Below are positions 12,001 to 64,000 of a stretch of 64,000 nt of DNA, in pieces (positions within the stretch are counted from its first letter, which is position 1; each line of letters opens with the position of its first letter). Origin of the DNA: Trueperaceae bacterium (GTDB taxonomy: Bacteria; Deinococcota; Deinococci; Deinococcales; Trueperaceae); NCBI GenBank assembly GCA_965215565.1, contig CBDCDZ010000004.1, forward strand, positions 3,648,001 to 3,712,000. Direction: 5' to 3'. Position numbers: made by a program.

Positions 12001-15000
12001 CGATAGGTAGCGCCCGGGTGAGTGCGCCGAGCATCTCTTCAGCGCTGCCGTAGCGCTCGCAAGGGTTGTGTAAGAGCGCCTTTTTGATGATAGGTGCTAG
12101 AGGCGCAGCCTCGTTTGGCAACGCGCCGAGATGCACAGTTGGGTCGCCCATGAGAAAGCGAAACACGTCTTTGCCGTAGGGGGGACCGCCCGTCACCATG
12201 TGGTAGAGCACCGCGCCTACCGCGTAGAGGTCACTTCTTGGATCGCGCCGCTCGCCCGCGAACTGCTCGGGCGGCATGTAGTTGGGCGTCCCCAAAGACA
12301 CGCCCTGCTGGGTGATCGCCGCGAGCGCTAAGTCTTTGGCGAAGCCGAAGTCTGTCAGGAGTGCCTTCTCGCCGTTGATGAGGATATTCGACGGCTTGAC
12401 GTCGCAGTGAATAACGTCACTCTTGTGGGCGTAGGCGAGCGCTTGGAGCACGTCCGTAGCAATCTTGATGCTCCGCTCTAAACTGAGCGTGCCTTGATTC
12501 AGCGCTTTCTCGAGCGACACGCCGGGGCAGTACGCAAAGATGAGGCTCATATCTTGCACAGCTAGGAGGGGCACGATGTTGTCGTGCTCCAAAAAGGTGA
12601 CCACCGCAGCTTCGCGCCCTAATCGGTTGGCGAGCGAGGGCGAACCCCCTCTAAGCTCTTTAACCACCACGAGTTTATCGTGCCAGCGGGCTAACTCGAC
12701 CCTCATAGGTCCGTGGTCCGAAAGTACGCGAATGGGAGTAAACATTGCCATAAGGTTATCATGTTTCACATCTTAATAATCTTCATGGACAACGTGATTT
12801 TTCTTACTTTGAGTCTCAAGTGCGAGCTTCACCGCGCCCCCAACATGAGTTTGTAAGACGCGAACGCCGTGAGCCTGGAGCCGCTCCAAAACGCCCGTGT
12901 GTGGGTGCCCGTATCCATTTCTGCCGTAAGAAAGAACCGCCTGCTCGGGCTGCGCGGCCCTCAGGAGCGCGTCGGACGTTGAATGTTTCGAGCCGTGATG
13001 CGCCACCATTAAGATATCGACGTCGGGCACGAACAGCTCCCTTTCGACGGGGCTCGAGAGGTCCCCCAAAAAGAGCGCCTTAGTGCCTTTTACGTCCAGC
13101 ACAAAGGCCACCGAGTTGTCGTTGTCGCTCTCGTAAGGGACGGGCGGCGGGTTGAGAATCTCGAGGTCAGCCTCGCCTACGCTCAGCCTTTCGCCGCGCG
13201 TCACCTGCATCACCTTGACGCCCTTGCGCGCCGCAACCTCTAGGAGCGCGTCGAACACGGGTTTACCCGGTGCGGGTGCGCCGATGAGGAGCGTTTGCAC
13301 GGGCATGCCCTCTAATACACTGACGAGCCCTTCGATATGATCGGTGTCAGGGTGCGAGGCGACGACGAGTTCTAGTTCGTCCACCCCTTGCGCTCGCAGC
13401 GCAGGCAGCACCGTGCCCTTCCCCACGTCGAAATCGCTGAAGGGCGTCCCGCCCCCGTCCACTAAAATTTCGATGCGCTGTCAGATACAATAATCTATGC
13501 GACTAAACAATAATCCTTGCGACTCTCACAATAATCTCTGCGACTGACGTATACTCACCTGAGTGAGTGTCGTACCGCCTATCGACAAATTTGTTTTGGG
13601 GGACCAATTATACTTCCTCGACTGGATAGGCGGTGTGACGCACAATCCAGGAAAGTCCAGCGAGCCCCTCATGCAGGTATTCACGAGCCCGGTCATAACG
13701 AACAGCGGCGGCATGTCTTACGGAAAGCAGTTCGCTATGAACGTCGGCGTCGGTTTACTCCCTTACATGAAGATCGGCTCCCTCTGGTATGAAGGCAACC
13801 GTATCGGCCTGTTTCCTCTCCGCAAAGTCACCTTTAAGTTAAGAATCGCATCCGACAACCCCATCGTCTCGACGCTTCAGGAAGCTCTGGGAGATGAGCC
13901 CGGTGCGAGTAGGGGCGGGCGTACAGTACTCGGCACCGCTTTGTTCGACACGATAAGTCGAACGAACTGCTTGGTTTACCGTTATGACACGACGCGCAGA
14001 AAGAAGAGCATACTCAGTAGCATCATCTTCCCGGTCATGGAAATTGTCAGGTTCTACTACGCGACCGGGACGAGGCTTAGCAACGCCCTCTTCACGGGCG
14101 AGGTGCAAGGGGAGGACTTGTCGCGACTGTGCAGTGAGGGTTCGGGTCTCTATGACGACGTCGCCATCGTCAAGCTGAAGTCCGAATACGCCGACAGCTC
14201 TGCTTACATCATCGGCAGATGGCTGGGGTCGCCTCACGCCAGGGCGCAAGCGATTAAAATCTACCAGACTGTCCGCAAGGGAACCATCAACCGGCGGGCC
14301 GACCCTTCGAGCGATCTGCACGTGTCGCCGGAAGTCACCTTTCCCTTCCTCGGACCCACCGATCTGAGTGTCCAAGGCACTTACCTTACCCGAGAGAACG
14401 GCGAGCGACATTTCCTGGTCAGTCGTCTCCTACGCTGCACTGCACCTTTTCCCTACGAGGCGGTCACAGTCGAGCGTCCCCTCGGCAAGATCGAAGAGAC
14501 GTTAGAAGGAGAAGAGGGTAATCCCATCTACAGGCGACCCTTTACTCGGAAGCGCAAACCTAAAGGCAGAATCAAACATCACAACGAACCGAACCTCGGA
14601 CTCCGAACCCTGAGCATCGACCTTTACGAAGAGAACTTCCCCGACTTAGAGAACAAACCCCTCCACAAGACCTACGGGGAAGCCTATATCCACCGCACCA
14701 AGAAGCGGAAAGAGGGCGAGGAAGGGGACGATTTCTCGAGCGGCTCCGGCGTCCACGGCGGCTCGGGTCCTAGAGGTATCAGGCTCAACACCGATCCTGC
14801 GGACGAGCCTCCTAAAGCGCAGAAAAAGCGTGCCACGCCGGTGCAGTTGGCGTTCACTAAAGACGCGCTGGACACGCTCAGGGACGCATATAAAGTTCCC
14901 TATACGCTCCTCGATGCCGACGGTCAGGAACTATCAGAGGGGGAAGGATTCGCACTTCTCCCTAGCGAACTTCGGCTGCTGAACGACTGGGCGGAGTACG

Positions 15001-63000: not shown

Positions 63001-64000
63001 GGTCGTCTCCGCGACGGGCGCGTCCTCAGCAGCCTTGGCGTGATCGGAACGGCGCTGGACGTTGCGGCGGGCCGACTTGGTTTTGCGGGCTGCTTCGCTC
63101 TCGATGCGCCGCATCTCCGCGATGGCTTTGAACAGGGCGTCCTCGTCGACCTCCTGCTGGAGCACCTTCTTGATGTGTCTGATCGCCCGCTTGACCTCCC
63201 AAATGGACACGGGCGGGTGGAGCGCGTTCCCGTAGGGGATTTCGAAGTAGGTGTCCAGGTCTGGGTCGAGGAAGTAGATGCGGCTCAGGTCCCTGGGGTC
63301 GTAGCGGAAGGTGAAATAGCGCGGTTCCTTAGGGTGGTCGGGGTCTCGTGCGCCGATCCAGGGGTGGAGCACGTCGCTGTAATACTCAATGTAGTTGAAG
63401 GCGATGCCGTAGCGCTGGACGCTGTGCTTATTGTCGTAGGGCATGAAGTCGAGACGAAGGCGCATCTCGTCCGTCGCCTTCTCGGGCAGACCGCGCCCGA
63501 GTTCGGTCTTCGTGCCGAAGATGCCGCGCTTGTACTTCGCCGCCGGGGTGCTCATGATCCCCATGTGGGGGCGGTTGTGATACTTCATCAGCAGGTTCGC
63601 GAACCACGACTCGAACTCGGAAAGCGTCATGATGGCCTTTTTCTCCGAATCGTACTCGCCCTTGTCCTTGTAGTTGCTGAAGGTCGTACCGGGCAGCTTC
63701 TGAATATCGGTGGCGAAAGTGCCCATGAGTCGCTCGATGTGTGCGCCGTGCTTGGGCTCCCCGTTGCCGCGGAAATCCGAGATGATGTCGTACTCCTCGC
63801 AGGCACGCTCAAGCATCTTGCCGCGGAACTCCTTGGCGTTGTCCGCGTGGACCGCCTCAGGGAAACCCCAGCAGTCCCAGGTCGCGTCCACCCCGAGCTG
63901 CTCCAGCCAAGCGTGTTTAGGCAGAATAGCGCGGTACAAGCACATTCCGACGGCATTGGCGTTGGGTGGGTCGAAAGAGATGTAGAAACCCAGCCCGACG

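Follow-up and report, generated by a model that had tools for sequence, protein, structure and literature searches.

In this genome, the competence gene comEC, which is present as a single copy, was split by a Tn7-like element of 52,120 bp (contig 3,661,479–3,713,598), and comM was split by a related element of 46,339 bp (contig 2,978,269–3,024,607). Sequence comparison supported the two as non-CRISPR sisters. They belong to a TnsF-free family that recurs at the comM site of Tn6022. On the reading that we favour, with about even confidence, this family homes on comM independently of TnsF, and jumps to other places are kept when they disable transformation.

The window analysed comprised 64,000 nucleotides of contig CBDCDZ010000004.1 (3,648,001–3,712,000; window position 1 is contig position 3,648,001), and the host assembly consisted of four contigs and was 99.99% complete. 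The comEC element starts at window position 13,479. Its features are listed below in window coordinates, except where contig positions are given.

12773–13474, minus strand: comEC 3′ part, metallo-beta-lactamase nuclease domain (TIGR00361 positions 468–663)
13475–13478, no strand: one copy of the GCGC target duplication
13479–13544, plus strand: tnsE-side end, TGT terminus and three TnsB-site-like repeats at 13487, 13507, and 13528
13563–15345, plus strand: tnsE homologue, pointing inward, with a frameshift near 14,970–15,010 (27% identity to the intact 632-aa copy of the comM element)
24181–31941, no strand: cargo, dpd-like DNA-modification cluster (TGT-like, DpdK, DpdJ, Vut_1, QueC; family search)
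43163–44194, minus strand: cargo, ComEC-like metallo-beta-lactamase that looks secreted (33% identity with the ComEC domain of the host)
53452–55445, plus strand: cargo module from a LuxR regulator to a PPC-domain protein (78–86% nucleotide identity with the comM element)
55529–59946, minus strand: cargo, lanthipeptide synthetase (RamC/LanC) and ABC exporter (family search)
60395–61993, minus strand: tniQ, with a tail that combines a winged helix and a nuclease fold; two indels near 60,840–60,900 split the gene
61996–62916, minus strand: tnsC, TniB family ATPase, intact (PF05621; 56.5% identical to the comM copy)
62917–64000, minus strand: tnsB 3′ part (the whole gene is intact, encodes 623 aa, and has its start at contig 3,712,788)
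Beyond the window: tnsA, frameshifted
Beyond the window, ending at contig 3,713,598: second end of the element, inverted partner with four repeats
Contig 3,713,599–3,715,173: comEC membrane part, behind comEA (TIGR00361 positions 68–462)

Both termini of the comEC element started with TGTCAGATACAATA, and 25 of their first 27 bases were identical. A 4-bp GCGC duplication flanked the element on either side. Removals of 3, 4, 5, and 6 bp were tried, and only that of 4 bp restored the comEC frame RLPGR-IEILVDGGG. The gene ran uninterrupted across the insertion point in all nine relatives' loci examined, both congeners included. The survey's finding of a 52-kb insertion between comEC halves that are contiguous in relatives was thus exact in its coordinates, ends, and duplication. 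Judged by the profile matches, the break separates the membrane part of the protein from its nuclease domain. The TnsB-site-like repeats numbered three at the window end (20–21-bp spacing) and four at the far end. The ten other elements with both ends mapped all had 5-bp duplications, and the 4 bp at comEC reflects either a 4-bp stagger or a later loss of 1 bp at the junction. Among sequencing runs, the best-matching one probably derives from the source sample. Two marine runs of one study yielded host-like pieces at ~82–94% identity and, at 95%, a single 353-bp fragment from the start of tnsE; the matches listed for them included no junction, and thus neither an empty site nor another flank.

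The two elements had the same layout, with tnsA-tnsB-tnsC-tniQ at one end and an inward-pointing tnsE at the opposite end, and their tns proteins were matched by Pfam PF08722/PF08721, PF09299, PF05621, and PF06527. The survey had omitted the TnsE homologue, which was present in both. This distal gene was named TnsE because the model of the intact comM-element copy matched the TnsE C-terminal domain 5d16 (Z 10.9, rmsd 3.2, 133 residues aligned; next match Z 7.3) and its N terminus resembled PriB/SSB folds. Foldseek returned no match at E 0.001 for either of two models. The replichores were lopsided, and GC skew provided no useful test of TnsE orientation.

The survey had also described tnsA and tniQ of the comEC element as broken. 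The tnsA gene was indeed frameshifted, while tniQ was split by its two nearby indels rather than lost, leaving a 368-aa core ORF and a 162-aa tail ORF, and tnsE was broken as well. Four indels therefore fell within ~7 kb of tns genes (one in tnsA, two in tniQ, and one in tnsE), against no frame change in 32 control genes covering 33.8 kb. Given these controls, assembly error is an unlikely source of the lesions. The reading frames of tnsB, tnsC, and the TniQ core are still open. The comM element retained an intact 539-aa TniQ and 632-aa TnsE.

As the survey had stated, neither element contained cas genes: none was found among 49 ORFs scanned in the comEC element, nor among another 21 scanned in the comM element. 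PADLOC matches of the Cas3 type and to DinG were partial and concerned helicases, for which DpdJ and an XPB-type protein are the better assignments. Among the cargo, a relative of the ComEC-like metallo-beta-lactamase also rides in the comM element, and the LuxR-to-PPC module was also present on other islands of the host genome.

The insertion in comM had TG..CA ends and a 5-bp GGCGG duplication, in agreement with the survey. The proteins of the sister pair shared 54% (TnsB), 56.5% (TnsC), and 59% (TniQ) identity, and the pair had a support of 99/98 in the TnsC tree. The 72% identity given earlier for tnsB holds for nucleotides (73% over aligned bases), not for protein. The Tn7-like hallmarks were present, namely tns genes and TG..CA ends with asymmetric TnsB-site arrays, together with the 5-bp duplication in the comM element. 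The comM insertion lay upstream of the Walker B codons, as in the Tn6022 family, which was true of the comM element and not of the comEC element. A ten-base FLD(E/V) motif shared between the comM Walker B and comEC was rejected as a common signal, as it occurred in opposite orientation and at a different distance to the tnsA end. The end of the comM element was 18 bp from the PGE codons, against 17 bp in an A. baumannii record, which placed it 1 bp from the Tn6022 site.

The closest known system is the Tn6022/AbaR backbone, which has tnsF and a distal tnsE, and whose comM insertion in Acinetobacter requires TnsF (PMC10293859; PMC11014353). The elements here resemble it in gene order, a distal opposite-strand tnsE, TG..CA ends, comM codons, and orientation, and their TnsA/B/C were 37–41% identical to the Tn6022 proteins. 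They differ in that both are without TnsF, the tnsF gene behind tniQ in the operon being missing; in a TniQ that branches separately and carries a fused tail of winged helix and nuclease fold; and in variable spacing, with one copy in comEC that has a 4-bp duplication. TnsF was not found in the host genome by tblastn with two TnsF proteins or with their profile, although both queries recovered G138 and the reference loci. Nor was it found in nine of ten other genomes tested, one of which (G164) is 57% complete; the exception was the positive control G138.

Insertion sites were compared across the phylum (Deinococcota, as judged by kinship). When 364 genomes were searched with TniQ, TnsB, and TnsE, one or both flanks could be mapped for 21 elements; those of G162, G018, and G151 and a second one in G122 were excluded because neither end could be read. 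Six of the 21 elements occupied comM at its GGG codons (in this genome, G149, G122, G169, G164, and G138, the last with TnsF), four lay deeper in comM, and 11 were elsewhere. The survey had placed a relative at the same comM position; G169 and G164 do share the codon cluster, a few bases off. A second comM site ~130 codons further in was occupied in G091, G096, and G097 and by a remnant in G048. These three mapped elements and remnant showed that the family does evolve new programmed sites. The 11 insertions outside comM comprised two in comEC (this genome and G059), one in comF (G095), and eight in unrelated places. The off-site flank labels livG-like, GntR-like, methyltransferase, and intergenic come from inspection of translations rather than from a family search.

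A JGI metagenome survey by TnsB, which retained the best 80 of 380 matches, gave 63 loci with tnsA located: 23 abutted comM, 29 had another flank, and 11 were too short. The other-flank class required at least 420 bp of non-comM sequence, and comM is detectable even on short flanks, which biases its share upward. A Pfam scan of 68 flank frames gave scattered families for 53, some of which may still be element-internal. Thus, 29 of the 52 readable-flank loci among the best 80 of 380, like 11 of the 21 mapped phylum elements, were outside comM, and none of these 52 matched the ComEC or ComF profiles.

The 23 metagenomic comM loci (among the best 80 of 380) carried TnsF in 11 cases and had none over at least 3.5 kb behind tniQ in seven, with five undecidable. 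TnsF-free elements were found at the Tn6022 comM site in this genome, in three other near-complete genomes, and on seven metagenome contigs, although TnsF may lie elsewhere in the metagenomic genomes, whose element ends rest on a single junction. TnsF-bearing elements ended 17 bp from the PGE codons in 13 of 13 cases (11 JGI loci, G138, and the A. baumannii record), two of these spacings being determined by eye because the script had picked an overlapping match. The ten TnsF-free spacings were 11, 15, 15, 15, 16, 17, 18, 18 (one of these in this genome), 21, and 27 bp; one further end was not found. In the TniQ tree, built by a fast method and with long branches, TnsF-bearing and TnsF-free rows separated with a support of 100, and comM insertions were scattered over the TnsF-free side. 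Both sisters also fell outside the TnsF-bearing clade in the TnsC tree. Behind tniQ, the TnsF-free elements had no common partner gene, one related pair excepted. A TnsF-free family thus recurs at the Tn6022 comM site. Because comM recurs without TnsF or a shared partner, TniQ itself probably reads comM. What is new here is that comM is reached without TnsF; comM was already known as a Tn7-like target with TnsF (PMC10293859; PMC11014353) or a guide RNA. Within the mainly open-access main texts searched, no paper described comM targeting without TnsF, or Tn7-like elements other than CRISPR-associated ones in comEC or comF, and the accessible text of PMC8649781 gave no whole-word match to comM.

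The 539-aa TniQ was modelled with a MarR-like winged helix (residues 359–424, Z about 8) followed by a PD-(D/E)xK-like fold (434–536; Z 8.9 to 2vld, a middling score that speaks to fold only). The acidic catalytic motif was missing, as judged by eye. Six database proteins (55–66% identity) had the same fusion, four of them full-length and two shorter at the N terminus, and stand-alone homologues of the tail (30–39%) occurred in five of 127 family genomes, away from tns genes. Twenty neighbours of four such loci were scanned: those in G277 matched TraC/TraG-type ATPase, CagX, Replic_Relax, and Toprim, and one in G361 matched Replic_Relax. Atlas matches of the tail scored 0.80–0.90, with Replic_Relax on 11% of one cluster, which is a lead only. 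These neighbours suggest that a conjugation cluster was the origin of the tail. Insertion in comM does not require it, because tail-less TniQs of 314–434 aa occupy that gene. Two species-genome scans and the first JGI scan located no insertion site for the eight closest TniQ relatives. The five loci that emerged from three viral scans were distant, and the one examined had no tns or com match.

A C-terminal TniQ extension without a partner gene, a two-route design, and the TnsE fold (5d16) also recall prototype Tn7, in which TnsD directs insertion to glmS and TnsE to replicating DNA (PMC11406308). Unlike in Tn7, the targets here are disrupted rather than spared, and the extension is unrelated to the HTH, XRE, AcrR, CI, and HA tails of TniQ described in that source. 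Tn7-like elements guided by RNA likewise split competence genes, and comEC is the guide-RNA target of one type I-B1 element (PMC9881144; PMC11406308); both elements here lack cas genes and an array.

The survey had proposed that a non-CRISPR TniQ family occupies two DNA-uptake genes. Sister elements do split both genes, while the evidence that the family aims at comEC is split. The main alternative to our reading, which we regard as possible although clearly less probable, is that comEC is a programmed site: the TniQ of the 52-kb element would have diverged to read the conserved DVGQGD codons, and other branches would likewise have moved to the second comM site, to a second comEC site, and to comF. 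These codons lie ~25–45 bp from the tnsA end, at the distance at which TniQ would be expected to bind. The sister TniQs, only 59% identical overall, were least alike in the helical (79/150) and winged-helix (34/77) parts, which leaves room for a change of specificity. The use of the second comM site, the comF insertion of G095, which is nested in the second-site comM clade, and the type I-B1 precedent also fit this alternative. The survey's statement that comEC was a target only once did not hold, as G059 carries a second comEC insertion inside the HxDH codons, with a 5-bp GAGGG duplication; its comEC halves lie on two contigs. However, the two comEC sites are 141 bp apart, that of G059 downstream; the two insertions face opposite ways, their tnsA-side flanks are unrelated, and their TniQ proteins are only distantly related. 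Each is represented once, and the metagenomic relatives in the best 80 of 380 had no comEC case. The comEC flank matched the comM site at 22 of 67 positions (null mean 23), no better than random DNA, and a flank comparison found it unrelated to the comM and G059 flanks. The atypical duplication, the alternative route offered by TnsE, and the frequent off-site insertions also speak against aiming. The comF halves of G095 matched the comF of this genome; its flank resembled one second-site comM flank (34/67, P 0.009), which was not upheld by the other two second-site flanks.

Untargeted insertion followed by selection is favoured over retargeting. Competence genes accounted for three of the 11 off-comM insertions, or two of 10 without the index case. 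The latter gave an enrichment of P about 0.002 for a generous 25-kb target set, and pooling with the 29 metagenomic off-site loci gave P about 0.03; kinship and sampling make both figures rough. On this rough measure, competence genes were hit beyond chance expectation, whichever route applied.

In the favoured reading, a TniQ without TnsF would insert at the GGG..PxPGE codons of comM, which is Tn6022's site, and the intact 46-kb element would be a homed copy. The 52-kb element would have entered comEC by an untargeted route, either TnsE or low-level TnsABC activity; the TnsE route of Tn6022 inserts at random (PMC11014353). The insertion may have been kept because it cut the nuclease domain from the single DNA-uptake channel and so suppressed transformation, through which empty alleles could otherwise remove this element and other resident islands. 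Protection from deletion by incoming empty alleles is the benefit argued for in PMC12378983 and PMC11472951, and at least three more Tn7-like islands in the host genome would share it. Mobility of the 52-kb element would have been lost afterwards through the four indels. Loss of transformation in the host strain is expected by analogy: the ComEC nuclease domain is important in Bacillus (PMC8579336), and in Deinococcus radiodurans comEA-comEC is essential and comF nearly so (PMC7314969). Other interrupters of competence genes are a genomic island in pneumococcal comEC and prophages in comFA, comK, and comYC (PMC12378983), with the same outcome for the host and different integration chemistry; the word Tn7 is absent from that review.

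A neutral accident is unlikely. By that account, an untargeted jump would have hit a dispensable gene without benefit, perhaps after comM had been disrupted, and it gains from the many relatives in unrelated genes, from the decay of the comEC element, and from the selection of the index case for being in comEC. Against it, two further competence-gene insertions occurred among the 10 other off-site ones in the phylum. The uptake pathway had not decayed beforehand, because the other uptake genes are intact, with dprA, comF, pilB, and comEA frames open.

Targeting in trans, in which another element would provide TnsF or a CRISPR effector to TniQs that cannot read DNA themselves, is the least probable account: it has been proposed for short TniQs (PMC10293859), some TnsF-free TniQs at comM have just 314–343 aa, and a type I-E effector adjoins another TniQ in this genome, but the host has no TnsF, its arrays of three or more repeats occur only at 4.34–4.35 Mb, the spacers of two host arrays matched neither site beyond 12 bases, the lone I-E spacer matches ruvC, and TnsF-free spacing departs from the constant 17 bp seen with TnsF. 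A caveat for the favoured reading is that TnsF may once have acted in trans.

The type I-E element is located on the same contig (1,548,886–1,558,017) and comprises tnsA, an interrupted tnsB, and tnsC, followed by the Cas8e, Cas11, Cas7e, Cas5, and Cas6e genes, with no Cas3, a two-repeat array, and a convergent tniQ. The best genome-wide match of its sole spacer was the start of ruvC (24/32, AGG adjoining), with five of the eight mismatches at third codon positions. One end of the element was 36 bp beyond the ruvC match; the other was not found. A congener had a similar remnant at another location. The only type I-E transposon listed in a 2025 classification is TniQ-less (PMC12669027), unlike the one here.

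The published route to comM is TnsF or a guide RNA, and a family with neither would offer a simpler and testable target selector. More tentatively, this may be a wide TnsF-free and CRISPR-free family in which TniQ alone was repeatedly reprogrammed onto transformation genes (two comM sites, two in comEC, and one in comF, within one phylum), and in this branch TniQ would be fused to a catalytically dead nuclease-fold protein from conjugation clusters, a partner that might direct it towards new targets. Every component needed for a mating-out assay is available from the intact 46-kb element, and because both sisters share one genome, aimed insertion can be tested directly against later selection. 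Through the comEC and comF insertions, the conflict of mobile elements with natural transformation also reaches a phylum whose bacteria are highly transformable.

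Competence genes were also split by Tn7-like elements in relatives, and both insertions carried a 5-bp duplication:
L061:7018 and L072:3370 (G059), second Tn7-like insertion in comEC
L059:14340 and L106:1400 (G095), Tn7-like element splitting comF

The comEC insertion of G059 fell within the metal-binding HxDH codons, and its element had a distant TniQ and lacked TnsF. The comF element was nested among the users of a second recurrent site in comM, located ~130 codons further into the gene than the Tn6022 site (the GGG..PxPGE codons) and occupied in four genomes, G091, G096, G097, and G048 (L054, L052, L055, and L050). 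In the clade at this second site, TniQ carried HTH domains at its C-terminal end. Homologues of the winged-helix and nuclease-fold tail found on TniQ of both sister elements also occurred as separate genes in four loci (L079, L080, L082, and L083, near 9,200–11,000), adjoined by an AAA ATPase in three of them, and the gene clusters that hold them look conjugative.

Three further Tn7-like loci were found on the same contig (C4):
C4:1,548,886-1,558,017 (L124:3886-13017), candidate type I-E CRISPR-associated transposon
C4:828,912-836,477, element with TnsD-like genes
C4:1,896,000-1,901,200, element with TnsD-like genes

The candidate I-E element encoded TnsA and TniQ, and Cas3 was absent from it. 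Its sole spacer matched the 5′ end of ruvC at 24 of 32 positions, with an AGG motif, and this target lay 36 bp from the element end. Among type I-E transposons, PMC12669027 lists the TniQ-less kind only. The congener G001 had the remnant of a similar I-E element at a different site (L221:10800-12900), which retained three repeats along with cas5, cas6, and a tniQ in convergent orientation. One of the two TnsD-like-gene elements was directly behind a glmS-like gene.

Adjoining comEC, positions 10900-11950 of the window were non-coding and highly repeated (591 matches within this genome), with very high depth in related sequencing runs.

The cargo of the sister elements included:
window 24181-31941, dpd-like DNA-modification cluster (comEC element)
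window 43163-44194, secreted-looking ComEC-like metallo-beta-lactamase (comEC element)
window 55529-59946, lanthipeptide synthetase and exporter (comEC element)
L002:13195-14670, secreted-looking ComEC-like metallo-beta-lactamase (comM element)
L003:10661 onward and L004:1816-2367, other cargo (comM element)

Besides its metallo-beta-lactamase, the comM element contained a large RHS protein (HINT and EndoU domains) and more EndoU and RHS pieces, as well as an IS3 element, a secretin, a Fic protein, and restriction-like genes. Pieces of one cargo module recurred in four or five of this genome's islands. Two explanations were proposed for the ComEC-like metallo-beta-lactamase carried by each element: it could substitute for the lost ComEC domain, or it could be an extracellular DNase that forms a further block on DNA uptake.
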